Positions 3,005 through 58,575 of a stretch of DNA of 64,000 nt are shown here, one piece after another. Made by a program: the position numbers and the translations under genes. Under the pieces are notes generated by a model, which searched no databases, was not told the DNA's origin, and saw only the letters and a list, made by a program, of their open reading frames with translations. How positions within the stretch are numbered: position 1 is the stretch's first letter; each line of letters opens with the position of its first letter. Source of the DNA: Candidatus Harrisonbacteria bacterium (GTDB lineage: Bacteria; Patescibacteriota; Minisyncoccia; UBA6257; 02-FULL-45-10c); NCBI GenBank assembly GCA_016214655.1, contig JACROC010000006.1:21377-85376 (forward strand), given 5' to 3'.

Positions 3005-3047
3005 ATAAAGTTACGAAAATCTCCTTATTTTGGTTATACTCAATAAC

Positions 3048-4052: not shown

Positions 4053-5251
4053 GAAAGATCGGATATCAAATCGGCGTTGGGTGCGCTGATATCAGTAAAA
4101 AAGAAAAAGAATATGTAAAAGACGTGTTGGAGCACGAGCGTCTTTCCTACGGGCCTTACACAAAGAAATTTGAAGAAGAATTCGCAAGAGCTCATGGGTG
4201 CAGATATGCCATTTTTTTGAATAGCGGCACTAGCGCGCTTCGGATTGCGGTAGCCGCTTTGAAAGAGATTGAGGGCTGGAAAGATGGGGATGAGGTATTG
4301 TGCCCCGCAGTTACCTTTGTTGCTTCTTCAAATGTGATTATTATGAACGGCTTAAAGCCGGTGTTTGTGGACGTTGATCCGCGGACATACAATATTGATC
4401 CGCGAAAGATTGAAGAGGAAATTACCAAGAAGACCCGTGCGATTATGGCGGTTAATTTGTTTGGACAGCCGGCGGATATGGATCCGATCTTAAAGATTGC
4501 TAAAAAACACAAGCTGAAAATTATTGAGGATTCCTGCGAAACAATGTTTGTGAAATACAAAGGTAGGCCGGCGGGTTCTTTCGGAGATATCAGCTGTTTT
4601 TCAACATATGTTGCGCATTTATTGGTAACTGGAGTAGGCGGATTTTCCTGCACGAGCAATCCAAAATACGCGGAAGTGATGAAGAGTTTGGCGAATCACG
4701 GCCGGGACGGGATTTATCTGCATATTGATGACGATAAAAATTTGAACAAACAGGGTCTATTTCAGGTAGTGTCCCGGCGATTCCATTTTATCCGCCTTGG
4801 TTATAGTTTTAGGGCGACCGAAATGGAAGCAGCTCTGGGTATAGGTCAGATGGAGCGGAAGGACCAGATTTTAGGGGCAAGGAAAAAGAATGCGGCGTAT
4901 TTGCTGAAAAAATTAAAGCCGCTTGCACAATATCTCCAGCTCCCGTGGCATCCCGGGCGGGTGGAACATTCATTTATGATGTTTCCGATTGTGGTGAAGC
5001 GGGGCGTTGGTATAAAAAAGCAAGACCTGGTGATGTACTTGGAAGAGCATAATGTGGAGACGCGCGACATGCTCCCGCTTTTAAGCCAGCCGGTGTATAA
5101 AAAATTATTCGGCGATATTGAAAACCAATATCCGGTGGCGAAATGGGTAAATGGTAATGGATTTTATATTGGCTGTCATCAAAAACTGACCAAGAAAGAA
5201 ATGGATTATATGGTTGCCGTTTTTGAAGATTTCTTTAAAAAACGAGTATGA
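4049..5251 (+). CDS. DegT/DnrJ/EryC1-family PLP enzyme, ColD-like (GDP-4-keto-6-deoxy-D-mannose 3-dehydratase-like)
   Basis: DegT-fold sequence. At the position where aminotransferases carry the Schiff-base Lys (SFHxxK...GEGG) this protein has ...[19 protein letters not shown]..., i.e. His instead of Lys, as in ColD (remembered as ...TFSSFYSHHIATMEGG...). The C-terminus NGFYIGCHQ resembles ColD GLFVGNHQ. Translationally coupled to gmd (ATGA overlap). Confidence 0.6.
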
Positions 5252-7421: not shown

Positions 7422-8804
7422 ATGAAAAAAACTTTATTTTTTTCCGCTTATTCAACCATGGGATTCAGAAATTTTTTGGTGATTCCTAATGGCGTGGCTG
7501 CGCGGCTGGCGCAAAATAAAAACTTGGAATTAGTTTTCTTGATTCCGAGAGGATCCAATCTCGGCGCCTTGATTAAAAAATATAACCTTGGCCCGAATGT
7601 AATTGTTGAAGAGGTGGATACGAAAATGCAGAAATTTTCGCTTATTCAAAAAGCATTTTATTTTTTTTATTCCTATCTTATTTTTACCGGCACGACTCGC
7701 CTGCTTGCGACATTCGGGGCGCGGGCTGACGCGCCTCCGGCCGGAGGTAATAGATACGCCGCGCCTCTTAAAAGCTTGATTTCCAAAACATTCGGAAGAT
7801 CCCGGCGGATTAAAACCGTTTTTGTTCCGTGGGCGTATAAGAAGCTTTTTTTCAGGAAAGAACTTGCCGATCTTTTTGAAAAGTATCACCCAGATTTGGT
7901 ATTTTTATCCGGCATCGCCGCCTTTGAGGACGAGGAATTATTGGCGGAAGCGCAGCGTAGAAGGGTGAAGACGATTGGCATGCCTACAAACTGGGATCAC
8001 CTTAATAAGTATTATATTCCGGTTCATGCGGACTTTTTGCTGATCCAGAATGAGCCGATGAAAAAAGAGGCGATGGAATATCATGGTTATCGCGAAGATC
8101 AGATTGTGATGGTAGGTTTTCCGCAATTTGATTTTTATGTAATCGGAAAGGAATATATTAAGCCGCGTGCGGAGGTGTTTAAAAAATACGGGTTTGACCC
8201 GGATTCAAAACTCATCTTATTTATTTCCGGAAGCGTTTATGCTTTGGACGAACAGGATATTTTAAGGGCTATTTATGATCGGGCCTGGCGCGGAGAATTT
8301 GGATATCCGGTTAGCGTGATGGTGCGCCCATATCCAAATCGCGCCGACATCGTCAAATATAAGCACTTGGAGGGCTTGCCGGGAATTGCATTTTTTTGGG
8401 AAAATACTTCAACTAATTTTGAAAATATTATTGAATTTACAAATATCCTACGCCATGCCGATGCGGTTATTTCCGTATTTTCCACGACGGCGATTGAAGC
8501 TGCGATATTTGATAAGCCAACTATTACTATAGGATTTGACGGCTATAGTAAGCGGCCGATGCACCAATCTTTGGCGCGCATGGAGAAGCTTTCGCATTTT
8601 AAACACGTACTGGACACCGGGAGCGTGAAAGTTGCGCGAAGTTTTGAGGAATTATTCGCCCAACTAGGCCAATACTTGAAGTCGCCGGAAACTGATCGGG
8701 AACAGCGTAAACTGTTAATCGAAAAAATGTGTTACAAAATGGACGGCAATTCCACGCAGCGGATTGTTGAGTTTATTAATGCGCAACTAAGCGATGCAAA
8801 ATAG
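7422..8804 (+). CDS. TagF/TagB-like CDP-glycerol glycerophosphotransferase-family protein (paralog 1 of 5)
   Basis: Shares with four other ORFs the motifs YHPDLVFLSG...VKTIGMPTNWDHLN, KLILFISGS (compare the family motif ILYAPTWR) and STTAIEAAIFDKPTITIGFDGY (compare the family motif DYSSVxFDFxxLxKPII). About 450 aa. Confidence 0.5.
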   Translation: MKKTLFFSAYSTMGFRNFLVIPNGVAARLAQNKNLELVFLIPRGSNLGALIKKYNLGPNVIVEEVDTKMQKFSLIQKAFYFFYSYLIFTGTTRLLATFGARADAPPAGGNRYAAPLKSLISKTFGRSRRIKTVFVPWAYKKLFFRKELADLFEKYHPDLVFLSGIAAFEDEELLAEAQRRRVKTIGMPTNWDHLNKYYIPVHADFLLIQNEPMKKEAMEYHGYREDQIVMVGFPQFDFYVIGKEYIKPRAEVFKKYGFDPDSKLILFISGSVYALDEQDILRAIYDRAWRGEFGYPVSVMVRPYPNRADIVKYKHLEGLPGIAFFWENTSTNFENIIEFTNILRHADAVISVFSTTAIEAAIFDKPTITIGFDGYSKRPMHQSLARMEKLSHFKHVLDTGSVKVARSFEELFAQLGQYLKSPETDREQRKLLIEKMCYKMDGNSTQRIVEFINAQLSDAK

Positions 8805-10170
8805 GCCGGCTTCTTTTACTAAGAAATTTATCAGCGGCGAGATGTACTTCGGATTTTGGGGCATGATTTCCAAGGTATTAGGTTTGGGCAACACTTTTTT
8901 GACCGTCTCCTCATTAACGGTTTATCAGTATGGAGTATTGCAATTGATTCTTGCCACCTATGCGGCGTTCGCTGATCTGATGCTGATCGGCAGTCCGGTA
9001 GTCAGCAATGAGATTTTCCGTTTAGTCGGATCGGGAAAAGAGGAAAAAGCAAAACGCCTTTTTTTTGAATATAATAAGCTTTACGTATTAATCGCAATAT
9101 TTTTTTGGGGCTTATTCTTTTTTGGCGCGCCGGTTCTTTCATTCAGATATGGTCCGGATTTCATTCAATTCGCCAAGATTATTTCATTTTTATTTTTATT
9201 TGAGGTCTTCTTGGCTGCAGCGAAATTATTGCTTAAATTGAGGTTGAAGTTTAAAGTTGTCGCCAGCCGGTCTTCAATTGCTAAATTTGTCCAATTTTCT
9301 ATATTAAGCTATTTCTTTTTCTTTTCGCACCTTGGTTTGAGAGAGGTTTTGTTGTCTTTGGTAATTGCCATGTTTATCTCTCTTTTATCTTTAGTTCCGG
9401 CCGCAATAAAAGCTTATCGTCCATGGGTCGGTAGGGCCGCCTTAAACGAAAGGATTCTTTTGGGGATATTTTTTGCGCATGGTAAGTGGGATATATTAAG
9501 ATCTTTATTCTCAAGATTAACCTCAAGAATTGAGCCGTGGATACTCAAATTATTTGTCGGTACGGAAGCCGTTGCCATTTTTTCCGTGGCTAACACGATT
9601 GTTGGAACAATAAAAGACTATTTCCCGAATAATACGATAAATTCTCTCGCCGCCTTGGCCGTAGAAGATAAAGCCAGGTCCCAAAGAATTTTTTCTTATG
9701 GAATGAAATATATGTTTTTACTTTCAATCGCGGTATCTATTGCGGCGCTAATTGCGGTTCCTCCCTTTATTAGATTATTTTTTGCGAAATATAGCGCTTC
9801 TTTGCCGCTTTTCTACATCCTATTGTTTAATTTGCCGATGGGAATGCTGGCATTTATGCCGTCTATTTATTTACAAATTCTGAAGAAACAGAAGTTTTTA
9901 CTCTATCAAGGAGTCATAAGATCTATCATAGAAATTCCGTTAGTATTGATTCTGGTTATTCTATTTGGATTGTGGGGGTTAGTTGCAAAGGAAATATTAA
10001 TAAAGCTGATCATGTTCCCGATCACCCTCTGGTATTTTTTGAGATATCAAAATCTGGTATCCATAAAATGGGGCGAGTTATTTTCATTTACCGGAAACGA
10101 TAGAATATTCTTGGCGAATATGTATTCTAATTTTACTTCTTTGATTAAAATGAAATTGAATATAAAATGA
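8794..10170 (+). CDS. polytopic membrane protein, putative MOP/Wzx-type glycopolymer flippase
   Basis: 458 aa and about 12-14 hydrophobic segments throughout. Embedded between TagF-like paralogs. No soluble domain. Confidence 0.35.
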   Translation: MQNRPASFTKKFISGEMYFGFWGMISKVLGLGNTFLTVSSLTVYQYGVLQLILATYAAFADLMLIGSPVVSNEIFRLVGSGKEEKAKRLFFEYNKLYVLIAIFFWGLFFFGAPVLSFRYGPDFIQFAKIISFLFLFEVFLAAAKLLLKLRLKFKVVASRSSIAKFVQFSILSYFFFFSHLGLREVLLSLVIAMFISLLSLVPAAIKAYRPWVGRAALNERILLGIFFAHGKWDILRSLFSRLTSRIEPWILKLFVGTEAVAIFSVANTIVGTIKDYFPNNTINSLAALAVEDKARSQRIFSYGMKYMFLLSIAVSIAALIAVPPFIRLFFAKYSASLPLFYILLFNLPMGMLAFMPSIYLQILKKQKFLLYQGVIRSIIEIPLVLILVILFGLWGLVAKEILIKLIMFPITLWYFLRYQNLVSIKWGELFSFTGNDRIFLANMYSNFTSLIKMKLNIK

Positions 10171-10178
10171 ACTGATAT

Positions 10179-11531
10179 ATGAAAACTATATTTTTATTCA
10201 TACCGAATTACGTCTACTCCTCTGATTTTTTATGTACCGGATTTATAAGATGCCTGGTTTCCAGATTCCGGGTCGTTATTTTCGCGCCCGAGGTGATTTT
10301 GGAGAGCAATAAATTGCGGCTTCAATCGCCGAACCTGGTTTGTATAAAGTGGGAAACACAATATCCGCGATTTTGGAATTTATTCGGAAGATATTTGCGG
10401 TATTCTCTTATCAGGAAATATGATTTTGAACCGGTGATTCAGCGGAACCGCAAAAAAGGAATGAAGGATTGGCGGAGAAAAATATTGCGGTTTTTTTCGT
10501 ATGCGTTTCCGGCGGCGTGGCTGACGCCGGATCTTTTTTTTAAATTGGAAATTTTACTGGCCCCCAAATCCAAATTATTTTCAGAATACGCGGAAAAGTA
10601 TCAGCCGGCCATTGTTGTTACTCCTACTCCGGGATTTACTCATTTTGACGCCGAAGCGATTGTGCTGGCGAAAAAATCGCATCTTCCCACCGCTGCCATC
10701 GATTTTAGCTGGGACAACCTGCATAATGGCGGCCCGCATTTTAGAAGAGTCGATTATCTGATTGTTTGGAATAAAATTATTAAAAATACTGCCGTCAGGG
10801 AATACGGATATCCGGAAAACCGCGTTTTTGTTTCAGGAATAATGAGATTTGACCATTACTTTAAAAAACAGCCCGGCGAATTGTCCAGGGAAGAATTTCT
10901 TAAAAGTAAAAATTTAGACCCGAAGGAAAAGTTAATACTTATTACTACGGTCACTAAGGGCAATTATCCCAACGAGCATTTATTATTAAAAGATTTATTG
11001 GAAGCCAGAGAGAAAAATGTTTTTAACGGTTTCCCGAATATTCTGGTCAGAATGCACCCTAAAGAAGAAGTGAAAAATTTTACCGCTTTTCTGGATGCGG
11101 GAATCAGGGGTTTATGCGTTGAAAAAGCCGGTAAAGAAAAAGCAGTGGAATTGGGCAGTAATATTGAAATGGATGAGGAGGACCTGTTAAATCTCAAGCA
11201 TACTTTGGAATATTGCGATCTGAACATCAATTACTTATCCACTATTACCCTAGAAGCTTTTGTTTTTGACAGGCCGGTTATTAATATCAACTATCCGCCG
11301 GAATATCATTTGGGCTATACCTTCAGCCATTATAAGCCGTTGATTGAAATGAAATCTGTCCGGCTGGCATATAGTTTTGAAGAGCTGATTAACGATATCA
11401 ATATTTATTTTAAAAATCCCAATCTGGAACATCGGGAACGGCAGGCGGCTTTTGAGAAATATATCAAGTTTTCCGACGGCCTTAGCTACAAGAGGAGCGT
11501 TGATTTTTTGCATTCCATATTATATAAATAA
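10179..11531 (+). CDS. TagF/TagB-like glycerophosphotransferase-family protein (paralog 2, most divergent)
   Basis: YQPAIVVTPTPGFTHFDAEAIVLAKKSHLPTAAIDFSWDNLHNGG, KLILITTVTKGNYP and STITLEAFVFDRPVININYP align with the paralog motifs. Confidence 0.45.
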   Translation: MKTIFLFIPNYVYSSDFLCTGFIRCLVSRFRVVIFAPEVILESNKLRLQSPNLVCIKWETQYPRFWNLFGRYLRYSLIRKYDFEPVIQRNRKKGMKDWRRKILRFFSYAFPAAWLTPDLFFKLEILLAPKSKLFSEYAEKYQPAIVVTPTPGFTHFDAEAIVLAKKSHLPTAAIDFSWDNLHNGGPHFRRVDYLIVWNKIIKNTAVREYGYPENRVFVSGIMRFDHYFKKQPGELSREEFLKSKNLDPKEKLILITTVTKGNYPNEHLLLKDLLEAREKNVFNGFPNILVRMHPKEEVKNFTAFLDAGIRGLCVEKAGKEKAVELGSNIEMDEEDLLNLKHTLEYCDLNINYLSTITLEAFVFDRPVININYPPEYHLGYTFSHYKPLIEMKSVRLAYSFEELINDINIYFKNPNLEHRERQAAFEKYIKFSDGLSYKRSVDFLHSILYK

Positions 11532-11550
11532 CCAAGTGTTTAAGCGGTTT

Positions 11551-12768
11551 ATGCGGGATAAACAGGTGCAGAATTTGGTTGGGCAAGAATTGAGGCGGCA
11601 GCAGCTTTCGCTTGATTTAATTGCTTCGGAAAATTACGTTTCTCCCCAGATACTGAAGATTTTAGGATCGCCGCTGGTTAATAAATATTCCGAGGGTTAT
11701 CCGGGAAAGCGATATTATCCCGGCAATGAATTTTATGACCTGATTGAAAAATTGGCCCAAGACCGGGCCAGGAAGGTTTTTAATCTGTCTCACCGGAGCT
11801 GGGATGTTAACGTTCAGCCGTATTCCGGTTCGCCTGCAAATCTGGCGGTTTATTTCGCTTTAATGGATCCGGGTGATGTTTTGATGGGTATGAATTTGAT
11901 GTCTGGCGGCCATTTGACCCATGGCCATAAAGTGAATTTTTCCGGCAAAATTTATAAATCGGTCCAATACGGCGTTAATGAACAAACCGGGTTGGTAGAT
12001 TATTCCAAGGCGGCAAATCTAGCCAGAAAATATAAACCAAAGGTTATTGTTTCCGGGTTAACGGCTTATCCCAGAAAAATTAATTTCAAAAAATTCGGCC
12101 AGATTGCCAAATCGGTCGGCGCATATCATTTGGCGGACATTTCACACATTGCCGGCTTGGTAGCGGCTGGTTTGCACCAGTCCCCATTTCATTATAGTGA
12201 CGTAGTAATGACCACAACTCATAAGACTTTGCGCGGTCCAAGGGGCGCGATAATTTTTGCCAGGAAAGAATTATCTGAAAAAATAGATAGGGCGGTTTTT
12301 CCCGGGATTCAGGGCGGCCCGCACAATAACGTAGTTGCCGCCAAAGCAGTGATGTTTTTTGAGGCGCTAAAGCCGGAATTTAAGCGGTATCAGCGGCAAG
12401 TTGTAAAAAACGCCGCTGCTCTGGCTGGTAATTTAAGGGATTTAGGATTTAAATTAGTTACCGGCGGAACGGATAATCATTTGATTCTCGTTGATCTCAG
12501 GGATTCTTTGATTGACGGGTTAACCGCGGAGAAAATACTGGAAAAAAATAATATTACTGCGAATCGCAATGCTATACCGGGTGACTATTCTCCGTTTAAG
12601 CCGTCGGGCATCAGAATCGGCACGCCAGCGGTCACCACTCGTAGGATGGGCGAGTCGGAAATGTCTGAAATTGCCGGATTCATTTATCTGGCTTTAATTA
12701 AAAAACGAGATGTTAAAAAGGAAGTTGAAAAATTATGCAGAAGGTTTCCCTTGGAATATGGATATTAA
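11551..12768 (+). CDS. glyA: serine hydroxymethyltransferase
   Basis: LDLIASENYVSPQILKILGSPLVNKYSEGYPGKRYYPG... and the PLP-lysine region VVMTTTHKTLRGPRGAIIF. ATG at 11551 (the listed start at 11452 is upstream of the previous gene's stop). Confidence 0.9.
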   Translation: MRDKQVQNLVGQELRRQQLSLDLIASENYVSPQILKILGSPLVNKYSEGYPGKRYYPGNEFYDLIEKLAQDRARKVFNLSHRSWDVNVQPYSGSPANLAVYFALMDPGDVLMGMNLMSGGHLTHGHKVNFSGKIYKSVQYGVNEQTGLVDYSKAANLARKYKPKVIVSGLTAYPRKINFKKFGQIAKSVGAYHLADISHIAGLVAAGLHQSPFHYSDVVMTTTHKTLRGPRGAIIFARKELSEKIDRAVFPGIQGGPHNNVVAAKAVMFFEALKPEFKRYQRQVVKNAAALAGNLRDLGFKLVTGGTDNHLILVDLRDSLIDGLTAEKILEKNNITANRNAIPGDYSPFKPSGIRIGTPAVTTRRMGESEMSEIAGFIYLALIKKRDVKKEVEKLCRRFPLEYGY

Positions 12769-13654
12769 AAATTTTATTGTAAATTATCATTATGTTGAGG
12801 ATCCCCGGCCGGATTTTTCCGGCATTTGGCCGTGCTCTATTAGCGAATTTGAGCGTCAAATAAAATTCTTATCCGGTAATTTTTCTATAGTGTCGGCTGT
12901 TGACGTTTATAGGGCATCCCAGGAGAATAGCGGGGGTAATTATTGCGCCATTACTTTTGATGACGGCTTGAGGGATCAATATCAGAATGCGGTCCCGATT
13001 TTGAAAAAATATAACGCGACCGCGACTTTTTTTATTATTACTGATACCCTTAATGGATTTTTGCCACCCGCCCACCAGATCCACTTTTTGCTTTCCAAAG
13101 TTCCGGCAGAAAAATTAATTGATTTATTCAACGATTTTCAGAACCAATATCAGATACCCAAAGATCGGAGAGTTAATCCTAAAAAAAGACTTTTTGAGGA
13201 TATTTTGATTGCCAATTTTAAAGAAACTATGATGTCGGCGCCCCAAGACCTGACAGAACCGTTTTTGGGACATTGTTTTGAAAATCTTTCTTTGGATCCG
13301 GAAAAGTTCGGGCGGGGAACCTTTATGGATGAGCCGGAAATTCTCAGTTTAAGAAACACCGGTTTTTCCATCGGCAGCCACGCCCATAAACATTATTTGG
13401 AAGAAAGCATTAATCAAAAATATTTTCCTAGCGAGGTACGGGATTCTAAAAAAATTCTCGGGAGACTCCTCGGAGAAGATCCGACGATTTTCTCTTATCC
13501 CCATGGCCGGCACAATAATGAGGTTATCGCCCTTTTAAAAGAAGAAGGATTTAAACACGCTTTTATCACGGATCCGCGTCCCCCGAGGGCTGGAGACAAT
13601 CCGTATCTTATACCGAGACTGGATACCAACGATATTAAAAAATTAATTTATTAA
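12758..13654 (+). CDS. polysaccharide deacetylase (NodB-homology, CE4)
   Basis: NodB motif 1 AITFDDGLRDQ and His motif IGSHAHKH. ATG at 12758 overlaps the glyA stop. Confidence 0.7.
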   Translation: MDIKNFIVNYHYVEDPRPDFSGIWPCSISEFERQIKFLSGNFSIVSAVDVYRASQENSGGNYCAITFDDGLRDQYQNAVPILKKYNATATFFIITDTLNGFLPPAHQIHFLLSKVPAEKLIDLFNDFQNQYQIPKDRRVNPKKRLFEDILIANFKETMMSAPQDLTEPFLGHCFENLSLDPEKFGRGTFMDEPEILSLRNTGFSIGSHAHKHYLEESINQKYFPSEVRDSKKILGRLLGEDPTIFSYPHGRHNNEVIALLKEEGFKHAFITDPRPPRAGDNPYLIPRLDTNDIKKLIY

Positions 13655-13656
13655 TT

Positions 13657-14454
13657 ATGGTTTCAGCAGTTTTAATAACCAGCAATGCTTTACGGCATCA
13701 TTTTGTCGCCAATTATCTTTCTGACCATTTGAATTTGGCGGGCGTGGTATCTGAAGCCAAGCTTGCTTCTCCTCAGGGCGCCACCGTGGCGGAGGATGAA
13801 ATCATAAAAACGCATTTGCAGGAATTGAAAGAAACAGAGAAAGAATTTTTCGGTGGATATGAAAATTTTAAAATTCCAAAAAGCAGCGTATTAGAAATCG
13901 CGCGCGGCACTTCTAATGACCCCGCGGTTTTTGAGTGGGTTAAAAATAAAAATCCGGAATACCTGATTTTATTCGGATCCTCAATAATCAAAGACCCCCT
14001 TTTGAGTTATTTTAAGGATAAGGTGATTAATATGCATTTGGGTTTGTCCCCGTATTATCGCGGCTCTGGAACTAATTTTTGGCCCCTGGTATTTCGCGAA
14101 CCGGAGTGTGTCGGCGCAACTATTCATTTGGCGACGCTTGAGGTTGATGCCGGCGCAATCTTGGGTCAAGTGAGGCCGGACTTTGTTCCTGGTGATAATT
14201 GCCACACTTTGGGTTTTAAAACCGTTATTGCCGGAACGCAGTTACTGGTAAAGATCATTGGGGCGTATAATAAAGGAAATCTGGCGGGGCATAGACAAAA
14301 TCTGTCTATTGGCAAAGTATTTAAGAAAAAGAATTTTAATGCCGAAGCAGTGTTAGCTATGAGGAAAAATTTTGAAACCGGAATGATTGAAGAATATTTA
14401 AATGATCAGGCAGATCGCAATCAACAATATCCAATAATTTCCCCATTTTTATAA
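13657..14454 (+). CDS. formyltransferase-domain protein, sugar N-formyltransferase-like
   Basis: Formyl_trans_N catalytic signature NMHLGLSPYYRG (compare N-x-H-x-S-LLP-x-x-RG) and GATIHLATLEVDAGAILGQ (catalytic Asp). 265 aa with no tRNA-binding C-terminal domain, so not Fmt. Confidence 0.6.
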   Translation: MVSAVLITSNALRHHFVANYLSDHLNLAGVVSEAKLASPQGATVAEDEIIKTHLQELKETEKEFFGGYENFKIPKSSVLEIARGTSNDPAVFEWVKNKNPEYLILFGSSIIKDPLLSYFKDKVINMHLGLSPYYRGSGTNFWPLVFREPECVGATIHLATLEVDAGAILGQVRPDFVPGDNCHTLGFKTVIAGTQLLVKIIGAYNKGNLAGHRQNLSIGKVFKKKNFNAEAVLAMRKNFETGMIEEYLNDQADRNQQYPIISPFL

Positions 14455-14487
14455 AAAATAAATTAGAAATTAATTTTTAGATAACCC

Positions 14488-15855
14488 ATGCACCCACAAC
14501 CAGCAAAAACTATTTTTCTTACTAGCTTCCACGTGCTTATTTCCAGAAATATCCTCTCGACACCAATTTTAAAGATGTTGACTGATAAAGGCGTACAAAT
14601 AGTTATCTTGGTACCAGATTACAAGAAAGAATTTTTTGAAAAGAACTTTTCCGGACCAAACATTATCATTGAGGGGATAGAGGCATATGGGTTCTCAAAG
14701 AGTTTTATTGGCTTATTCTTTAAACGCTTGTCGCGTGTTATTCTTGATACGGATACAGTAAGGATTAGAATGAAGTATAAGCTCGTTGTAGAGAGAAAAT
14801 TTATATATTATTTTTTATTTTTTGTGCCGGCGAAGATTTTAGGGAAATCCAAAACTGTAATTAGCCTGATAAGATTTTTAGATTATAAACTGCGCTCGAA
14901 GCCGGGATATTTCCTGGATTTATTTAATAGATATCATCCTGATCTTATAGTCGCCACTGATGTGAATAATGAGAATGATGTTGCATTACTTCAGGATGCA
15001 AAGGCCAAAAAAATGCCGACAGCTGCTATTGTGCGGTCGTGGGATAATTTAACAAATTTTCTAATGAGAAGCACACCCGATTGGTTGGTTGTTGCAAATG
15101 AGATTATGAAATCACAAGTAATTACATATCATGGCCTCAGGGCGGAGAATGTTTTGGTAACCGGGATGCCGCATTATGACCGCTATATCCGCGGTGCTAC
15201 GATGAGTCGTAAAGAATTTTTTGATTCCATTGACGCAGATCAAAGGAAGAAATTAATTTTATATGTGCCAGTTGCGGATTATCGGGTGAAAGAAAATGAT
15301 ATTGATTCGTATATTATACGCTTACTTTCAAGTCTAGATGTAAATACTCTTGTCCGTTTTCCCCCCGCAGCTACGGTGGCAGTGGATAAAACTCAATTTC
15401 CGGAGAATGTGATCTTTGACGAGCCGGGAGTTCGATTCGGCGGCAAGGGAGATAGCGAGATGACGAAAGAGGATGACGATGGGTTGATTAATATTCTTTC
15501 TTATTCTGACGTGGTTGTATCCGGTCCGGGCACGATGAATATTGATGCGGCGATTTTTGATAAACCAATTGTGCTTGTGAATTTATATCCCACCCAGCGT
15601 ATTCAATTGGAGGGTATCAAAGAATACGGATATACACATATCCAAAATATATTAAAAACCGGCGGAATTCGTATGGCGACGAATAAAGAAGAACTTTTTG
15701 ATTTTATCAATCTGTATTTTAAAAATCCGAGTTTGGATGCTGATGGCAGGCGGAGAATTACCAGAGAACAGTGTTACAAATTAGATGGCAGAAGTAGCGA
15801 ACGCGTTACTAACCATATTTTAAGATTTTTGTCTGAAAATGAAATCATTGCTTAA
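14488..15855 (+). CDS. TagF/TagB-like glycerophosphotransferase-family protein (paralog 3)
   Basis: YHPDLIVATDVNNENDVALLQDAKAKKMPTAAIVRSWDNLTNF, KLILYVPVADYR, SGPGTMNIDAAIFDKPIVLVNLY and the C-terminal REQCYKLDGRSSERV shared with paralogs. Confidence 0.5.
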   Translation: MHPQPAKTIFLTSFHVLISRNILSTPILKMLTDKGVQIVILVPDYKKEFFEKNFSGPNIIIEGIEAYGFSKSFIGLFFKRLSRVILDTDTVRIRMKYKLVVERKFIYYFLFFVPAKILGKSKTVISLIRFLDYKLRSKPGYFLDLFNRYHPDLIVATDVNNENDVALLQDAKAKKMPTAAIVRSWDNLTNFLMRSTPDWLVVANEIMKSQVITYHGLRAENVLVTGMPHYDRYIRGATMSRKEFFDSIDADQRKKLILYVPVADYRVKENDIDSYIIRLLSSLDVNTLVRFPPAATVAVDKTQFPENVIFDEPGVRFGGKGDSEMTKEDDDGLINILSYSDVVVSGPGTMNIDAAIFDKPIVLVNLYPTQRIQLEGIKEYGYTHIQNILKTGGIRMATNKEELFDFINLYFKNPSLDADGRRRITREQCYKLDGRSSERVTNHILRFLSENEIIA

Positions 15856-16699
15856 TAAAATTAAAAATTTCTTACGTTGTCCCCTAGATTATTCTGCGCA
15901 ATTCGAATTAAGTGGGGGCGTATTTATTTGTCGAGGGTGTAAGAAGGAATATGGTATCCGTGATGGAAAGGTAATTTTTGATCATCCACCCAGCGATGTA
16001 CTTGTTTGTACTAAAAGAAATCCGATTGATAAAACAAAATGGAGTGAGTGGCGGGCTGCCAACTTCGAATATTTAAAAAGTTTTCTTTTAGAGGAGGAAA
16101 AAAATAAAATCTTAATTGATATTGGCGCGGGTACTGCTTCTTTCCGCGAATTGACTGGATCATTCAAAACTACAATTGGTATTGATTTTTATCCACATGA
16201 GATGGTTGATGTGGTGGCAGATGTTACTAAGCCATTACCAATTAGAGATGAGAGTTGTGACATAGTTTTTTTGTCCAATGTTTTAGAGCATATTCCTGAG
16301 CCACAGCCGTTGCTCGATGAGTGTTATCGTATTTTAAAGCCGAGAGGATATATTATTGGCGCAGTTCCCTTTCTGATGCAAATTCATCAAGAACCTTATG
16401 ATTTCAATCGTTATACTGATTTTATGCTTGAGCGAATGTTGGCTCATAGTGGATTTGAGCGTACGCGGGTCACATCATTAGGAACGCCGTTAGATGTATA
16501 TCGCACGATGCAGAGAGAATATTTCCACATTTTATTAAATAAGCAATTGTCGGTGAATATTTTCAAAAATTCTGTCTTACAATTCGCAATTCGCTTTACC
16601 AGAAAAATTACTTATCTCTTTACTCGCATCTATAAGTTGTTCCCCCTCCTCTCATCTAATAGATATACGGAAGGATATGGTTTTATTGGATATAAATAA
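15839..16699 (+). CDS. class I SAM-dependent methyltransferase with N-terminal Cys4 zinc-ribbon
   Basis: CPLD...CRGCKKEY zinc-ribbon. MTase motif I ILIDIGAGTASF and post-I/II motifs DIVFLSNVLEHIPE...YRILKPRGYIIG. Confidence 0.65.
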   Translation: MKSLLNKIKNFLRCPLDYSAQFELSGGVFICRGCKKEYGIRDGKVIFDHPPSDVLVCTKRNPIDKTKWSEWRAANFEYLKSFLLEEEKNKILIDIGAGTASFRELTGSFKTTIGIDFYPHEMVDVVADVTKPLPIRDESCDIVFLSNVLEHIPEPQPLLDECYRILKPRGYIIGAVPFLMQIHQEPYDFNRYTDFMLERMLAHSGFERTRVTSLGTPLDVYRTMQREYFHILLNKQLSVNIFKNSVLQFAIRFTRKITYLFTRIYKLFPLLSSNRYTEGYGFIGYK

Positions 16700-16773
16700 C
16701 TATTGACGAGCTATTACTTTTTTAGTAAGCTTTTTTTAGCTACATTGACTTCTATATAGAGGAGGAACGGAAG

Positions 16774-17715
16774 ATGCAAAGAGTAAAGATCGCGGGTTTA
16801 GAGGTTGGAGATGGCGCCCCCGTTTTTATGATTGCCGAGATTGGAATTAACCATAATGGCAGTTTAGATGTTGTTAAAAAATTAATTGATGCCGCTGCTG
16901 AAGCGGGGTGTCAAGCGGTAAAGTTCCAAAAGCGCACAATTCCAGTTATTTATTCTGAAGCCGAGCTCCAGAAGCCTCGTGAAGTGCCCGCTGATGTGAT
17001 CGTGCGAGCTCTGAAGAGGGGGGTTCTTTCTAAAGAGGCAGTTGTTCGCCTTGTCGACTCGGATCTTCGGCAGACAACAAATGGCGATTTGAAGCTGGCG
17101 TTGGAGTTGACGGCATCAGAGTATGCCGAAATTGATGTATATTGTAAAACAAAAAACATGCTTTGGTTCGCTTCTCCTTGGGATGAGGATAGCGTTGATT
17201 TTTTGGATCAATTTAATCCCTGTTGTTATAAAGTGGCATCTGCGTCATTAACTGATGACGGATTATTGGAGTATATTCGTTCTAGGGGGTGTCCCGTGAT
17301 TCTTTCAACTGGTATGAGTACTCTTGAGCAGATTGATCATGCGATTGATGTCCTTGGAGAGGATGATCTGGTATTACTGCATTGCGTTTCTACTTATCCA
17401 GCAGAGTACAAAGAACTTAATCTCCGCGTAATTCCGGTTTTAAAAGCAAGATATGATATTCCGGTAGGATATAGCGGTCATGAGCGAGGTATCCATTCGT
17501 CAGCTCATGCAGTTGCGTTAGGCGCTTGTGCAGTCGAAAGACATGTGACCCTTGATCGTATAATGTGGGGTAGTGATCAGGCTGCTAGTATTGAGCCGAA
17601 AGGATTGGAGTCATTAGTAAAAGAGATTCGTCATTTAGAGGAGGCATTGGGAGATGGAGAGAAGCGATTACTTGATTCAGAAGTTCCTATTATGAAGAAA
17701 CTGCGACGGAAATAA
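16774..17715 (+). CDS. neuB: NeuB-family nonulosonic acid (sialic-acid-type) synthase, no SAF domain
   Basis: APVFMIAEIGINHNGSLDVVKKLIDAAAEAGCQAVKFQKRT... is the NeuB/PseI/SpsE TIM-barrel signature. 313 aa, ends before any SAF domain. Carries a ~45-aa insert after KFQKRT. RBS gaggagg upstream. Confidence 0.75.
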   Translation: MQRVKIAGLEVGDGAPVFMIAEIGINHNGSLDVVKKLIDAAAEAGCQAVKFQKRTIPVIYSEAELQKPREVPADVIVRALKRGVLSKEAVVRLVDSDLRQTTNGDLKLALELTASEYAEIDVYCKTKNMLWFASPWDEDSVDFLDQFNPCCYKVASASLTDDGLLEYIRSRGCPVILSTGMSTLEQIDHAIDVLGEDDLVLLHCVSTYPAEYKELNLRVIPVLKARYDIPVGYSGHERGIHSSAHAVALGACAVERHVTLDRIMWGSDQAASIEPKGLESLVKEIRHLEEALGDGEKRLLDSEVPIMKKLRRK

Positions 17716-17726
17716 AGATGTACACC

Positions 17727-17753
17727 GCCGGATTATCTGATCCGGCTTTTTTA
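17727..17753 (+). terminator. rho-independent terminator after the NeuB-like gene
   Basis: gccggat-tatctg-atccggc hairpin followed by ttttttattt. Confidence 0.55.
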
Positions 17754-17754
17754 T

Positions 17755-17783
17755 TTGCTAAATATCAATTTTTGTGTTAGATT
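17755..17783 (+). promoter_or_regulatory. candidate sigma70-type promoter for the SDR/oxidoreductase genes
   Basis: TTGCTA - 17 nt - (TGt)TAGATT, about 35 nt upstream of the ATG at 17819 with RBS ggaggg. By-eye match only. Confidence 0.25.
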
Positions 17784-17818
17784 GCTTCTAGTTTCCTTGA
17801 GAAGTCAATGGAGGGAAG

Positions 17819-18556
17819 ATGCAAAATCTCTTTTCTTTAAATGGGAAAGTGATAATTCTTACTGGCGGCAGCGGGTTTTTGGGATCATATTATATGCGAG
17901 CTTTGCGTGATGCGGGCGCTATCGTTATCGATTGGGATTTGAAATCTGGCATTGATATTACCGATGATCAATCAGTCGCGGCAGCAATTGAGAATGTTTT
18001 GGAGAAATATGGAAGAGTTGATGGATTGGTCAATAATGCGGCGCTGGATGCAAAACCACATTCTGATCCAGCGAGTAATTGGAAGCCGTATGAAGAATTT
18101 CCAATGGATCTTTGGGAGAGAGAATTGGCGGTAAATCTGACGGGTGCAATGAGGGTGACTAAGGTGGTTGTCCCGTACATGATGCGTCAGCGTTTCGGCT
18201 CTATTATTTTTGTAGCTTCTGATTTGGCTTTAATTGCGCCAAATAATTCTATCTACGATGCGGGTCGCTTTAAGGATATTGCTTATATCACTTCAAAGGC
18301 TGGTCTTCTTGGCCTGATGCGAGCATGGGCTTCGCGACTCGGGTCATACAATGTCCGAGTAAATGCGTTCGTCCCCGGCGGAGTTTTTAACGGCCATTCG
18401 GAAGAATTTGTAAAAAAGAATGGGGCGCTTAACATGTTGGGGCGTATGGCTGAGCCAAACGAGTACAGTGGCGCAATTATCTTTTTACTTTCCGATGCCT
18501 CAACATTTATGACTGGTTCATGTATGGTGATGGATGGAGGGAGGACTGCATGGTAA
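17819..18556 (+). CDS. short-chain dehydrogenase/reductase (SDR)
   Basis: TGGSGFLGSYY (TGxxxGxG) and YITSKAGLLGL (YxxxK). Confidence 0.75.
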   Translation: MQNLFSLNGKVIILTGGSGFLGSYYMRALRDAGAIVIDWDLKSGIDITDDQSVAAAIENVLEKYGRVDGLVNNAALDAKPHSDPASNWKPYEEFPMDLWERELAVNLTGAMRVTKVVVPYMMRQRFGSIIFVASDLALIAPNNSIYDAGRFKDIAYITSKAGLLGLMRAWASRLGSYNVRVNAFVPGGVFNGHSEEFVKKNGALNMLGRMAEPNEYSGAIIFLLSDASTFMTGSCMVMDGGRTAW

Positions 18557-18561
18557 ATAAA

Positions 18562-19551
18562 ATGAAGTTCCTTTTGTGCGGAATAGGGTCAATGGGGCAG
18601 AGGCATTTTCGGAATTTGAATGGATTGAGGCAGGAAATTGCACTTTTTCGGTCAAAACAAACAACCACTCCTTTTATTGAAAAGTTTTTTGAGGAGCAAA
18701 GAAAGAAAGGATTATTAATCCCTCTTTTTTATGACCTAGAGCTAGCATTGACAAGTTTTCGGCCGGATGCAGTTGTGGTTGCAAATCCTAATTCTCTGCA
18801 TATGCCCATTTCGTTGGCTGGCGCAAGAGCTGGTTGCCATCTTTTTATTGAAAAGCCAGTTTCCCATACGATGGATCAGATGGACGAATTGACAGAATTA
18901 CTCAAGAAGAAGAATTTAATTGCAATGGTCGGCTATAATCTTCGGTTTCATCCGCTTTTACAATTGATGAAAAGGATGTACGAATCCGGAGAAATCGGGC
19001 GCGCTGTATCTGTCCATGTTGAAGTTGGAGAAAATATTGAGGATTGGCATCCGTGGGAAGATTATAGAGACGCATACGCATGCTGGAAAAGCGGCGGTGG
19101 CGGAGTAACGTTATGTTTTAGCCACGACATAGATTATCTTTATTGGTTTTTTGGAATGCCAGAACGCGTGCAGGCTATTGGGGGTAAAAAGGCTCCGCTT
19201 GGCGGAGATGCCGAGGATACTATAAAGGCACTTATGGAATTTCGCGGCGGGCTAATTGCCTCGCTCCACATGGATTATTGGCAGAGACCAAAAAAGCGGA
19301 CATTTGAAATTATAGGAACACTTGGAAGGATGATGTGGGATTGCGGCGCAGGGACATTGGTGCTGGAAAAAAGAGATCTAATCAAAAAAACTTTTGACGT
19401 CCCAAAGAATTTCGATAGGAATGATATGTTTATTTCTGAGATGAAAAATTTTATTTTATCCGCAGAAAATAAAGAAAATCTACTTATTCCATTTGAAGAA
19501 GGGGTTGATGTTCTTAGGATTTGTATTGACATTAAGAAAAAAATTTATTAA
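18562..19551 (+). CDS. Gfo/Idh/MocA-family NAD(P)-dependent oxidoreductase
   Basis: MKFLLCGIGSMGQRHFRNL Rossmann N-terminus and the family-typical EKP motif (LFIEKPVSHT). ATG at 18562 just after the SDR stop. Confidence 0.7.
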   Translation: MKFLLCGIGSMGQRHFRNLNGLRQEIALFRSKQTTTPFIEKFFEEQRKKGLLIPLFYDLELALTSFRPDAVVVANPNSLHMPISLAGARAGCHLFIEKPVSHTMDQMDELTELLKKKNLIAMVGYNLRFHPLLQLMKRMYESGEIGRAVSVHVEVGENIEDWHPWEDYRDAYACWKSGGGGVTLCFSHDIDYLYWFFGMPERVQAIGGKKAPLGGDAEDTIKALMEFRGGLIASLHMDYWQRPKKRTFEIIGTLGRMMWDCGAGTLVLEKRDLIKKTFDVPKNFDRNDMFISEMKNFILSAENKENLLIPFEEGVDVLRICIDIKKKIY

Positions 19552-19560
19552 ATATATATT

Positions 19561-19590
19561 TCCGTGTTACGTAGACACGGATTTTTTTTT
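19561..19590 (+). terminator. rho-independent terminator
   Basis: tccgtgt-tacgtag-acacgga perfect 7-bp stem followed by T9. Confidence 0.6.
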
Positions 19591-19607
19591 GAATTATCAT
19601 TAAAAAA

Positions 19608-20624
19608 ATGAATTATTACGAAATACAAAATCAATCCAGGAAATTGCTTTCTTGGTTTTTAGATATAAGATCGAAAATCCTTGATTTAGATGGAGAGCAC
19701 CGTGTTTATGAAATTGCCGAAATTATAGCTTGTAATTATAGAAATTTAAATATTAATTTTCCTAAAAATGAAGTCATTGTAAGCGCTCCTCAAATTACAA
19801 ATAATTATTTTAATAATGATTCGGAATATAGGAAGCCTGTTAAGGATTTATTTAATCTAGTAAACAGGGAGCTCTCTCCATTTGTCAGTCAATTTTATTT
19901 ACACGGTAGCTTAGCTACCGAAGATTATAAAAAGGGATGGAGCGATTTAGATACATTTATGGTTATTAATGGGGAGGTTGTATTAGACGCGAAAAAGCTA
20001 ATTAAACTTCGAGAAATATGTTTTAATGCCTGGCCGATATTTTTGGAAATTACCCCATTACAGCATCACGGATTTATAATCATTACTGAGCTTGATACAA
20101 AATGTTATTCTAATTCTTTTTTACCAACGGAAGTATTTAAGTTGTCACTAGCTATGAAAAATAACCAGCCAACGCTTAAATTGTTAATTCGGGACGATGA
20201 TGGGTTGTCTAAAAATTTATTATTAAATAGATTAGAGCTTGCTCGTGAATCGGCGAATGAAGGAATTTTTAAATATCATCCACACAATGGGAAATATCTT
20301 TTATCTGAATTTCGTAATGCAAACGATTCAATGCATCAACTGTTTTCATTTTTAGGAAATAATATGAATGCTCCAATTTATTTTTTAGATTCTATTGGGA
20401 AAGGCTGTCATAAAAAAGAATCTTTTTTAAGAGCGCGATCATATTTTTCGGATGAGGCCTGGAGCGTTATTGACAAAGCAAGTATTATCAGGGATTTATG
20501 GCCAGATAAGGAAGGTCAAAGATACAGAGGTAATGCGATTCCGAAGTGGGTTATGGAAATTTTAGGGAAAAATTATATTAAGGAAGCCGTTACTTTGTGG
20601 GAAGAAGCGGTTAGTAATGTTTAA
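19608..20624 (+). CDS. uncharacterized protein with polymerase-beta-type nucleotidyltransferase-fold motif (possibly LicD/fukutin-like phosphotransferase)
   Basis: hG[ST]-x10-[DE]h[DE]h pattern: LHGSLATEDYKKGWSDLDTFMVI. No other recognisable domain. 338 aa. Confidence 0.3.
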   Translation: MNYYEIQNQSRKLLSWFLDIRSKILDLDGEHRVYEIAEIIACNYRNLNINFPKNEVIVSAPQITNNYFNNDSEYRKPVKDLFNLVNRELSPFVSQFYLHGSLATEDYKKGWSDLDTFMVINGEVVLDAKKLIKLREICFNAWPIFLEITPLQHHGFIIITELDTKCYSNSFLPTEVFKLSLAMKNNQPTLKLLIRDDDGLSKNLLLNRLELARESANEGIFKYHPHNGKYLLSEFRNANDSMHQLFSFLGNNMNAPIYFLDSIGKGCHKKESFLRARSYFSDEAWSVIDKASIIRDLWPDKEGQRYRGNAIPKWVMEILGKNYIKEAVTLWEEAVSNV

Positions 20625-20636
20625 AAATGAAATATT

Positions 20637-21695
20637 ATGAATAAAAAATTTGTTAATCCACCGCCTCGCAATATTAGTTTGGCGAAATATGATGCTGCCC
20701 ACAAAGAGCTTATCGAAGTCTTTTCGCAGTTTACGGATGTTGCGGCTTTGTATGATTATGGCACCGTCCATAATCCCGGCATTAGCGACCTCGATATTTT
20801 TCTGATTTTAAAGGGTGATTTGCATTCTTCGAAGGCAGAAGACTATCTTATTAGTGAAAAGAAATTTCCCCATACATATTCTCTTCCCCGAGGCACATTA
20901 ATGGTTATGAATGTTGGTGATTTTCAAGGGGTTCACTGGTTTGACGATCAAATTAAACTAAGCCATTTTTTTGGAGATAAAATTATATTGCAGGATATAG
21001 ATCTAGAAATGCAACGGCAGAGATTTTTTGCAAGTATTATTGATTGGCTGCCAGAGCGTTTAGGTGCCTTAGTCCGCTTACTACAGAAATCGGAAATCGA
21101 CATAGTATTTTCGCTACGCGTATTGAGGTGTTATTGTTATACGTTGGAAAAATTATACAAACTTACCAAGGGTTCTCAATATCAGGAATTTGTTAATCGA
21201 GTTTTGGATTTAAGAAACCATTGGAATGACGGAAGAGAAAAAGAATTAGTTGAATTAATACGTGGAGGAATCGTATTAGGATGTAAAGCGCTTTTAGATG
21301 TTTCGGATACGATTCTAAAAAATGAAGAAGGAGCTGTTGGTGAATTATCTTTATATCCCGATCTGAGATTTCATTTTATTGATAATGCGCAACTATTATC
21401 TGCTCAATGGATTTTGTCCAATTTGCATCCATCGAGTATTGTTATCCCGGTTCCGAGCACATATGCCCCGCATTTTTCTTTTTATAGCCAGCAGCCGGGA
21501 TTTCTAGCGGAACAAATGCGTCGGCAAATGAATATGTCGTTGATGCTTCAACCGAAGAGTGAATTATATAGAAAATTTTTAGCTAAGAAAATCGGATTGG
21601 CAACTCGTGCCGGAGAATTTTTGCTTCGCAATGGATTTAAGGACGGGCTTTTTCGTTTTGGGTTCTATTTTAAAAATTATTTGAATAATTTTTAA
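20637..21695 (+). CDS. uncharacterized nucleotidyltransferase-fold protein, distant paralog of the preceding gene
   Basis: YDYGTVHNPGISDLDIFLIL shows the same G[ST]...SDLD-hydrophobic-strand pattern. 352 aa. Confidence 0.3.
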   Translation: MNKKFVNPPPRNISLAKYDAAHKELIEVFSQFTDVAALYDYGTVHNPGISDLDIFLILKGDLHSSKAEDYLISEKKFPHTYSLPRGTLMVMNVGDFQGVHWFDDQIKLSHFFGDKIILQDIDLEMQRQRFFASIIDWLPERLGALVRLLQKSEIDIVFSLRVLRCYCYTLEKLYKLTKGSQYQEFVNRVLDLRNHWNDGREKELVELIRGGIVLGCKALLDVSDTILKNEEGAVGELSLYPDLRFHFIDNAQLLSAQWILSNLHPSSIVIPVPSTYAPHFSFYSQQPGFLAEQMRRQMNMSLMLQPKSELYRKFLAKKIGLATRAGEFLLRNGFKDGLFRFGFYFKNYLNNF

Positions 21696-26214: not shown

Positions 26215-26229
26215 TGTTATATATTGCAT

Positions 26230-31278: not shown

Positions 31279-31292
31279 ACCCTATTTTATCC

Positions 31293-55037: not shown

Positions 55038-55044
55038 AATATGA

Positions 55045-55062
55045 GTGTACTTTATTTAGTAC
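55045..55062. promoter_or_regulatory. 18-bp palindromic operator-like site TGTACTTTATTTAGTACA (copy 1), between the TrmB-like gene and prs
   Basis: Perfect inverted repeat TGTACT / AGTACA. With flanks, 31 of 33 bp identical to the copy at 57095-57128. Confidence 0.5.
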
Positions 55063-55139
55063 ATATTTTCAAGTTTTTTTGCGGAAATTTAGCATATCTG
55101 ATATGCTCATGGGGTTGTTCTTTGAAAAGGAGGCAGGAA

Positions 55140-57074: not shown

Positions 57075-57095
57075 GTTGCGGGCGATCCATTATTT

Positions 57096-57716: not shown

Positions 57717-57725
57717 AATTATCAG

Positions 57726-58572: not shown

Positions 58573-58575
58573 TTA

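Follow-up and report, generated by a model that had tools for sequence, protein, structure and literature searches.

Positions 11,551 to 14,454 of a 64,000-nucleotide stretch (the window) of contig JACROC010000006.1, from a metagenome-assembled genome (MAG) of Candidatus Harrisonbacteria in the candidate phyla radiation (CPR, Patescibacteria), encode in close succession a serine hydroxymethyltransferase (SHMT, the product of glyA), a CE4/NodB-fold de-N-acetylase and an N-formyltransferase (FT) of the Formyl_trans_N fold. We propose that the deacetylase and FT constitute a two-enzyme tailoring module for nonulosonic acids (NulOs) that exchanges an N-acetyl for an N-formyl group, and that glyA is coupled to this module through one-carbon supply; taken as a whole, this reading has in our judgment an even chance of being correct. 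The first-pass annotation of this DNA had recognized the three genes within a glycan island, which their plus-strand coordinates, domain scores and junctions bear out (Table 1), and had suggested that an amino sugar is N-deacetylated and then N-formylated; that sequence of reactions, to which comparative genomics gives good support, is retained here, but the substrate is most likely an intermediate of a nonulosonic (sialic-acid-like) pathway and not a generic amino sugar.

The proposal is based on the company that FT keeps in other genomes. Loci were sampled from GTDB species genomes (80) and from metagenomes (80), with flanks of 10 kb, and counts are given either for 57 non-redundant FT loci flanked on both sides by 7 kb or more or for a larger set of 164 clustered loci. 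A CE4 gene is present in all 57 of the former and in 140 of the latter, and in 129 of these 140 it lies within 300 nt of the FT gene, in the same orientation and either before or after it. This adjacency is far beyond chance, and the CE4 protein is an obligate partner of FT. The carriers belong to more than 15 phyla and include Bacteroidota, Acidobacteriota, Planctomycetota, Chloroflexota, Gemmatimonadota, Proteobacteria and Actinomycetota, as well as a number of CPR groups and a single Hadarchaeota MAG. One or more NulO genes occur in 52 of the 57 loci, most often a CMP-NulO synthetase (50 loci) or a NeuC-like epimerase (48), with NeuB in 38; a DegT aminotransferase is found in 12. The full trio of NeuB, NeuC and CMP-synthetase is present in 36 loci, 28 of them without DegT, and no acetyltransferase cluster is among the 40 commonest neighbor families of the FT loci. 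In an operon of the cultured Zunongwangia atlantica (L066), for example, a gene of unknown function is followed by NeuB, NeuC (406 bits versus a cut-off of 236), CE4, FT, a cytidylyltransferase, an AsnB-like protein, a BFO_1060-like glycosyltransferase and a GT4 glycosyltransferase; similarly, in L171, which encodes an FT 56% identical to that of the window, the order is glycosyltransferase, methyltransferase, glycosyltransferase, FT and CE4, beside CMP-synthetase, NeuB and NeuC. Since most clusters contain no aminotransferase, the sole amine open to formylation would be one that is freed by de-N-acetylation; and, with a single N-acetylated nitrogen and an FT that is never without CE4 in the 57 loci, sequential de-N-acetylation and N-formylation is the best explanation of the pairing.

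Some further features of these loci should be recorded. In another Harrisonbacteria MAG (L004, 7447–9284), two tandem copies of the CE4 partner precede FT. An asparagine-synthase-like glutamine amidotransferase lies near the CE4, FT and NulO genes in 13 of the 57 loci, including L066 (11481–13208) and L171 (11074–12963), but not in the window, and may add a further modification such as sugar amidation. Two apparent CE4-FT fusion proteins, P0397 (612 residues, CE4 then FT) and P0413 (481 residues, FT then CE4), have junctions that look like frameshift or deletion artifacts and were not used as evidence.

In the proposed pathway, NeuC, NeuB and CMP-synthetase would build the sugar from UDP-GlcNAc, so that its nitrogen arrives N-acetylated; the cytoplasmic CE4 enzyme would then strip the acetyl group, and FT would place a formyl group from N10-formyl-tetrahydrofolate (N10-formyl-THF) on the freed amine to give an N-formyl NulO, or leave a free-amine NulO where its step is incomplete. 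The pair might act at the stage of ManNAc, the free NulO or the CMP-NulO. A flanking BFO_1060-like glycosyltransferase would finally attach the product to the surface glycan. SHMT would charge THF with one-carbon units derived from serine, which would be oxidized to N10-formyl-THF by a FolD whose gene lies elsewhere; the position of glyA in the operon would in this way couple one-carbon supply to glycan formylation, in a cell whose folate pool otherwise has few consumers.

The FT of the window, which is 100% identical to the database protein HZB99_03220, contains the motifs INMHLGLSPYYRGSG and EVDAGAILG on which its initial recognition was based. Asn125, His127 and Asp164 are invariant in 28 family sequences and align to the N-x-H and D-A-G positions of ArnA, the Asn and His being located in a strongly conserved NMHLGLSPYYRGSGTNFWPL block, and GLSPYYRG stands in place of the canonical SLLP loop. 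The family, whose members have about 265 residues, comprises about 1,500 close homologues, which form 562 clusters at 50% identity (E ≤ 1e-30), and relatives are encoded by 287 GTDB species representatives. An AlphaFold model (pLDDT 95.9) matches Fmt, the N-terminal domain of ArnA (ArnA-N), WbkC, PseJ and PurN in Foldseek with probability 1.0 and TM scores of 0.5–0.62, and this structure shows FT to be a transformylase, although an outlying one. The view that it is neither Fmt nor PurN has held up: it scores 31.5 against a cut-off of 201.5 for Fmt (TIGR00460), has no match to Formyl_trans_C, and scores 43.8 against 150.1 for PurN (TIGR00639). The assignment as a sugar-type enzyme has fared less evenly. 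The closest solved relative by sequence is the formyltransferase domain of ArnA (phmmer, 5.6e-12 with the window protein), and the family profile gives 62 bits with ArnA-N as compared with 47–50 for the LgrA F domain, WbkC, Fmt and PurN; however, FT is below the cut-offs of the equivalogs for characterized sugar formyltransferases, namely ArnA and dTDP-4-amino-4,6-dideoxyglucose formyltransferase (ArnA NF005998, 49.7 versus 777; PRK06988, 47.5 versus 316; PRK07579, 25.7 versus 238). Judged from its sequence, FT belongs to a separate family that resembles the sugar formyltransferases, and N10-formyl-THF is its predicted formyl donor. Transfer of the formyl group to a sugar amine is predicted from context, specifically from the NulO genes of the FT loci.

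The CE4 proteins have the features expected of active de-N-acetylases. In an alignment of 61 family members, the His and Tyr of an NYHY motif, TFDDG, H-x3-H, YPxG, an Arg and an Asp are conserved; the corresponding residues of the window protein, numbered from the alternative ATG at 12710, are Asp84-Asp85, His224, His228, Tyr263-Pro264-Gly266 and His27, all of them invariant but for Tyr263, with 97% conservation. The Asp-His-His metal triad and the catalytic Asp are invariant, and the His of NYHY resembles the permuted catalytic His of PgaB. The family consensus begins only a few residues before NYHY, which indicates that the protein has no signal peptide, and this fits cytoplasmic action beside a folate-dependent enzyme. 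In a profile search of the PDB, the nearest proteins are the GlcNAc N-deacetylases PplD (6dq3), an IcaB-like enzyme (4wcj) and BpsB/PgaB, but the window protein is below the cut-offs of the named equivalogs (PgaB, IcaB, PdaA/B, PgdA and NodB; for example, 53.4 versus 248 for IcaB and 50 versus 322 for PgaB). With an insert of about 100 residues between the DD and HxxxH motifs, it belongs to a separate subfamily.

Several observations count against the module as proposed. Structural comparison ties Fmt (TM 0.61) with ArnA (TM 0.60), and the fold does not discriminate between them, so that the predicted sugar-type assignment of FT depends mainly on gene context and on a sequence margin of about 12 bits. 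Neither the CE4 nor the FT family has a biochemically characterized member. The flanks of 10 kb leave room for genes of legionaminic (Leg) or pseudaminic (Pse) acid synthesis beyond them. Within the window itself, the Gmd gene and an adjoining DegT aminotransferase appear to form a perosamine-like branch that is a possible alternative source of substrate and could supply a different amine. From this it might be supposed that FT acts, like WbkC, on GDP-perosamine or a related 4-amino-6-deoxyhexose and that the NulO context is coincidental; Gmd passes its equivalog cut-off and is followed by the aminotransferase in the same island, and WbkC of Brucella is among the better PDB matches of the family profile (49 bits). 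However, 8 kb and a gene of the other orientation separate these two genes from FT, FT tracks CE4 and NulO genes rather than DegT across the 57 loci, and a perosamine formyltransferase would require no deacetylase as partner. We therefore consider this substrate highly improbable.

The part of the proposal that concerns glyA is less straightforward. The match of its product to NF000586 is full-length (model positions 1–403 of 404), the pyridoxal phosphate-lysine motif TTTHKTLRGPRG is present, and the protein is 64–70% identical to many SHMTs of Patescibacteria. This full-length canonical sequence and its ordinary profile rule out a divergent aldolase or transaldolase paralogue; glyA of the window is an ordinary CPR orthologue and presumably the entry point of one-carbon units. 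The product of SHMT is methylene-THF and not formyl-THF, and FolD is therefore needed for the formation of N10-formyl-THF. The first-pass annotation had SHMT feeding the formyl donor and had tied glyA to glycan tailoring. Support for both ideas comes from other loci. The order glycosyltransferase-SHMT-CE4-FT is kept in one relative at 84–90% identity, and a metagenome scan for further glyA-linked loci returned only this relative, which had already been found. In L003, an unrelated metagenome contig, a fusion of 5-formyl-THF cyclo-ligase with FT is followed by CE4, SHMT and FolD, separated by gaps of 3 and 1 nt and then a 20-nt overlap, and these genes adjoin NeuB and CMP-synthetase genes; its FT and SHMT are each 54% identical to those of the window. 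To judge from the genes present, L003 encodes a complete supply line from serine to N10-formyl-THF joined to the CE4-FT pair. In L011, a Saccharibacteria MAG, a single tight same-strand array contains, with some intervening genes, a glycosyltransferase, SHMT, FolD, a methyltransferase, a GT4 glycosyltransferase, a 2-hydroxyacid dehydrogenase, CE4, CMP-synthetase, a methyltransferase, FT and a glycosyltransferase. A functional link between the folate one-carbon genes of CPR islands and the glycan genes is likely; FT is the only evident user of folate in these islands, and it is plausible that glyA of the window is placed to feed FT.

Nevertheless, much of the evidence on glyA points the other way, and has to be set against the coupling that we propose. 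In the 64-kb window, folD, fhs, fmt, purN and the gene for 5-formyl-THF cyclo-ligase were not found; folD does not adjoin glyA, and none of the best 120 relatives in a FolD homologue search lies on a contig of 103,474 bp, the length of the present one. SHMT or FolD is present in only 2 of the 57 independent FT loci, no SHMT link was seen in the 47 or more loci from outside the CPR, and SHMT is lacking near FT in L004, L167 and L171, of which L004 and L171 contain the next-closest relatives of the window FT. Conversely, among the sampled contexts of the closest homologues of the window SHMT, SHMT and FolD occur together in CPR glycan or NulO islands without FT or CE4 within 7–8 kb (L165, L169 and L170). 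In the window, L011, L164 and L169, the gene before SHMT encodes a BFO_1060-like glycosyltransferase of the same kind, and the recurring order glycosyltransferase-SHMT-FolD suggests shared ancestry from one ancestral arrangement, so that the CPR cases are not fully independent. Together with the ordinary character of the SHMT, these findings could mean that the CE4-FT module functions as proposed while glyA is a housekeeping gene, situated in the island by inherited CPR synteny, with its co-transcription incidental and no selected coupling. We regard this as a possible but, on balance, rather unlikely account. L003 packs the same functions in a different gene order around an SHMT that is well diverged from that of the window, glyA has been kept at different positions inside rearranged islands (the window, L011, L164, L165 and L169), and FT is the sole recognizable folate-dependent enzyme in these islands. 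In addition, the occurrence of SHMT and FolD in a housekeeping context, CofD-SHMT-FolD...RecA, in related genomes (L166 and L168) indicates that the island position is not forced. The original connections of glyA with the formyl donor and with glycan tailoring are partly supported, for certain CPR islands (the window and its relative, L003 and L011), but SHMT cannot itself provide the formyl-THF, and the link was not seen in loci from outside the CPR.

Two of the loci compared above have additional features. In L164, the order glycosyltransferase-SHMT-FolD-GT4 is present in a glycan island, and a different, short Formyl_trans_N gene is found 6.7 kb downstream, an association that also speaks for the folate link. 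The protein that it encodes (203 residues; within 14392–20990) is canonical, has an NLHPSLLPKYKG motif and is related to the window FT family by only about 36 bits; its neighbors are a B12-binding radical SAM enzyme, a methyltransferase and two radical-SAM/SPASM enzymes, and this cluster may be a second folate-dependent tailoring system. In L165 (1751–3906), from a close relative, three tandem CMP-NulO synthetase paralogues, 47–64% identical to the second such enzyme of the window, are upstream of genes for a 2-hydroxyacid dehydrogenase, an EamA protein, a protein of unassigned family, SHMT and FolD.

The arrangement of the genes is compatible with their co-transcription. The glyA ATG follows the stop codon of the upstream glycosyltransferase by 19 nt, and the overlap of glyA with the deacetylase gene is 11 nt, as first described, if translation of the latter starts at 12758, or 59 nt if it starts at 12710. 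The spacer between the deacetylase stop codon and the FT ATG is 2 nt rather than the 3 nt originally given, and 33 nt separate FT from the next glycosyltransferase. The array of 14 genes (Table 1), in which no gap exceeds 103 nt and several genes overlap, is presumed to be a single transcription unit. Whether glyA has a promoter and terminator of its own had been raised as a point on which its linkage would turn; in a scan for consensus sites, no site above chance isolates glyA, but the site counts equal those expected for shuffled sequence and the scan used a sigma-70 consensus, which CPR promoters may not fit.

Table 1. Location of the glyA, deacetylase and formyltransferase genes and of other features in the 64,000-nucleotide window.
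Feature	Position	Strand	Basis or remarks
Gmd (GDP-mannose 4,6-dehydratase) and DegT-family aminotransferase	3030–5251	+	TIGR01472 524.9 bits (cut-off 415); PF01041 319.8 bits
Same-strand array, 14 tightly packed genes including glyA, deacetylase and formyltransferase	7422–21695	+	ORF coordinates
BFO_1060/Glyphos_transf-like glycosyltransferase	7422–8804		
BFO_1060/Glyphos_transf-like glycosyltransferase, just upstream of glyA	10179–11531	+	PF04464 36.9 bits; NF046086 85.6 bits
glyA, serine hydroxymethyltransferase, 405 residues	11551–12768	+	Pfam SHMT 542.6 bits; NF000586 542.7 bits (cut-off 335)
CE4/NodB-fold de-N-acetylase, 298 residues (alternative ATG 12710)	12758–13654	+	PF01522 77.1 bits (cut-off 23.1), in two stretches
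N-formyltransferase, Formyl_trans_N fold, 265 residues	13657–14454	+	PF00551 45.1 bits (cut-off 26.1)
BFO_1060/Glyphos_transf-like glycosyltransferase, just downstream of formyltransferase	14488–15855	+	PF04464 40.8 bits; NF046086 50.8 bits
NeuB-family nonulosonate synthase, copy 1	16774–17715	+	PF03102 254 bits; TIGR03569 248.6 bits (below cut-off 399.65)
Genes following NeuB copy 1	17819–21695		SDR, GFO/IDH/MocA oxidoreductase and the next two entries
NTP_transf_2 protein	19608–20624		Weak match
352-residue protein	20637–21695		No family match
CMP-nonulosonate synthetase, copy 1	21670–22407	−	PF02348 76.8 bits; PseF model 150.5 bits
BFO_1060/Glyphos_transf-like glycosyltransferase	22493–23809		
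BFO_1060/Glyphos_transf-like glycosyltransferase	26224–27567		
Second NulO block	29385–33346	+	The next four entries
NeuC, hydrolyzing UDP-GlcNAc 2-epimerase	29385–30566	+	TIGR03568 358.9 bits (cut-off 235.9; equivalog passed)
CMP-nonulosonate synthetase, copy 2	30559–31278	+	PseF 186 bits
2-Hydroxyacid dehydrogenase	31293–32228	+	PF02826 175 bits
NeuB-family nonulosonate synthase, copy 2	32225–33346	+	PF03102 213 bits
184-residue protein	41659–42213		PaaX central Cas2-like domain 76 bits; weak CRISPR_Cas2 match
1405-residue ORF	42829–47046		Lamin tail domain, in two stretches
Sugar-phosphate block	52810–63367		
Transketolase, split over two ORFs	59296–60162, 60508–61560		

Domain searches of the ORF translations delimit a glycan island of about 39 kb, from position 1 to about 39,400 of the window. 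It contains GT4 and GT9 glycosyltransferases, Gmd and the DegT aminotransferase, two NeuB-family synthases, two CMP-nonulosonate synthetases and a hydrolyzing NeuC, together with a 2-hydroxyacid dehydrogenase, methyltransferases, a Wzy_C-TPR protein, a flippase and a priming transferase. A LegB/PseB-type dehydratase and an N-acetyltransferase were not found in the 64-kb window. Neither NeuB copy reaches the equivalog cut-off for NeuB or PseI; copy 1 is short, at 313 residues, lacks a SAF domain, and its Pfam match is divided into two stretches. The duplication of both the synthase and the CMP-NulO synthetase suggests that two different nonulosonic sugars are made. The order SDR, GFO/IDH/MocA oxidoreductase and, on the opposite strand, CMP-synthetase, which follows NeuB copy 1, is found again in L167.

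The five BFO_1060/Glyphos_transf-like glycosyltransferases of the island are paralogous proteins of about 440–460 residues and are candidate NulO transferases, the one just downstream of FT being a candidate for transfer of the modified sugar. To our knowledge, their family has no characterized member. Such glycosyltransferases are present in 41 of 64 long FT loci, with 98 copies in total.

The remainder of the window has other characteristics. Just outside the island, a 1405-residue ORF probably encodes a large surface protein; its sole Pfam match is to a lamin tail domain, and near it is a small protein with a PaaX central Cas2-like domain. The sugar-phosphate block encodes GAPDH, RpiB, PRPP synthetase, a phosphoribosyltransferase, Rpe, transketolase and a PfkB kinase. 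For the proteins encoded at the ends of the window, a look-up gave no exact database match. GC skew is positive in all 2-kb bins from 1 to 64000 and cumulative skew rises monotonically; since nearly all long ORFs are also on the plus strand, the entire window seems to belong to a single leading-strand replichore.

Nonulosonic acids occur as decorations on flagella, S-layers, capsules and lipopolysaccharide, where charge and recognition by phages and the immune system are governed by their N-acyl groups. The CE4-FT pair, uncharacterized and spread very broadly over the phyla, is a two-enzyme module by which the N-acyl group of NulOs is probably rewritten, and cultured, tractable carriers are available in Zunongwangia, Salegentibacter, Salinimicrobium and Rhodohalobacter. 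In the CPR, the finding points to surface-glycan formylation as a significant use of a minimal folate one-carbon pool, which bears on the question of why reduced genomes keep folate enzymes. A more specific version of the proposal is that the pair, acting with NeuC, NeuB and CMP-synthetase and without an aminotransferase, yields CMP-N-formylneuraminic acid or a closely similar sugar with a single nitrogen, and that in the CPR the drain on folate has led to the recruitment or fusion of glyA, folD and the 5-formyl-THF cyclo-ligase gene. We offer this tentatively and think it unlikely to be right. If it were, bacteria of more than 15 phyla, cultured marine Flavobacteriia among them, would make a class of natural sialic acid that is absent from the literature searched, and a CPR pathway would drain the folate pool sufficiently to recruit or fuse these three genes. 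No report of N-formylneuraminic acid, and no description of glyA inside an N-formyl-sugar cluster, was found in that literature.

Among characterized systems, the ArnA-N/ArnD pair of Escherichia coli and Salmonella, which functions in lipid A modification with UDP-4-amino-4-deoxy-L-arabinose (UDP-Ara4N), invites comparison with the genes of the window, in that a formyltransferase of the same fold, with the same Asn-His-Asp triad, and a CE4-fold hydrolase act on a sugar amine. The identity between ArnA and the window FT is only about 20–22%, with a TM score of about 0.6, and FT does not have the C-terminal decarboxylase domain. ArnD, the partner of ArnA, likewise has the CE4 fold. In the Arn pathway, formylation of Ara4N is followed by deformylation, whereas the context here is that of NulOs and the predicted order is deacetylation and then formylation. 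The Arn precedent, in which FT would act first and the CE4 enzyme would later remove the formyl group to leave a free, charge-neutralizing amine, is one way in which there might be no exchange on a single nitrogen; another is that each of them has its own nitrogen in a di-amino NulO as target. The standing of ArnA-N as the closest solved relative of FT and the partnership of ArnA with ArnD agree with the former, and the DegT aminotransferases in 12 of the 57 loci might provide a second amine. However, the Arn logic needs an aminotransferase, and most CE4-FT clusters, like the NulO genes of the window, have none to make a second or free amine. In addition, the window CE4 protein is of the PgaB/IcaB/PplD branch; no ArnD model is among its NCBIfam matches at E ≤ 0.01, and no ArnD chain is among the PDB profile matches of its family at E ≤ 0.1.

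The action of the enzymes on different nitrogens has its best parallel in Candidatus Kuenenia stuttgartiensis, in which CMP-NulOs bearing a free amine together with a formylated one have been detected by mass spectrometry and a leg-type cluster encodes a deacetylase and a formyltransferase, the latter labeled “legH/fmt” by the authors (bioRxiv 10.64898/2026.04.20.719630). However, the deacetylase in that cluster is a PIG-L protein, a WbqC-family gene lies between it and the formyltransferase, and legB and legC are present (supplementary table, bioRxiv 10.64898/2026.04.20.719630), whereas in the system described here CE4 directly adjoins FT, usually without a dehydratase or aminotransferase. 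The Kuenenia cluster is therefore not the same system, since its deacetylase is not a CE4 protein and WbqC, legB and legC are not found beside the CE4 gene of the window; nor have folate genes been reported for it. Compared by gene content, it appears to be analogous rather than homologous to the CE4-FT module. On these grounds, we regard both an Arn-like order and action on separate nitrogens as quite unlikely, and retain the exchange of acetyl for formyl on one nitrogen as the preferred interpretation of the module.

A group of sugar N-formyltransferases, consisting of PseJ (Anoxybacillus kamchatkensis; PDB entries 6ci2 and 6ci4), WbkC, VioF, WlaRD and FdtF/QdtF, has the Formyl_trans_N fold and the use of N10-formyl-THF in common with the window FT, and PseJ, according to the names of its PDB entries, acts in the pseudaminic acid pathway and thus on the route to a NulO. 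All of these enzymes are distant from FT, at 31–50 bits. Their formylation target is an amine that an aminotransferase has installed on a nucleotide-hexose, and they do not require a deacetylase as partner. A formylated NulO is also made by the archaeon Halorubrum sp. PV6, which produces 5-N-formyl-legionaminic acid and has a predicted formyltransferase, HrrPV6_1050, in its leg cluster (PMC6137143). That cluster differs from the genes of the window in encoding the full legionaminic acid pathway with legB, legC and legH, and deacetylase or folate genes are not mentioned (PMC6137143), but the product predicted for the CE4-FT module would likewise be an N-formylated NulO, a modification that in Halorubrum is located at N5.

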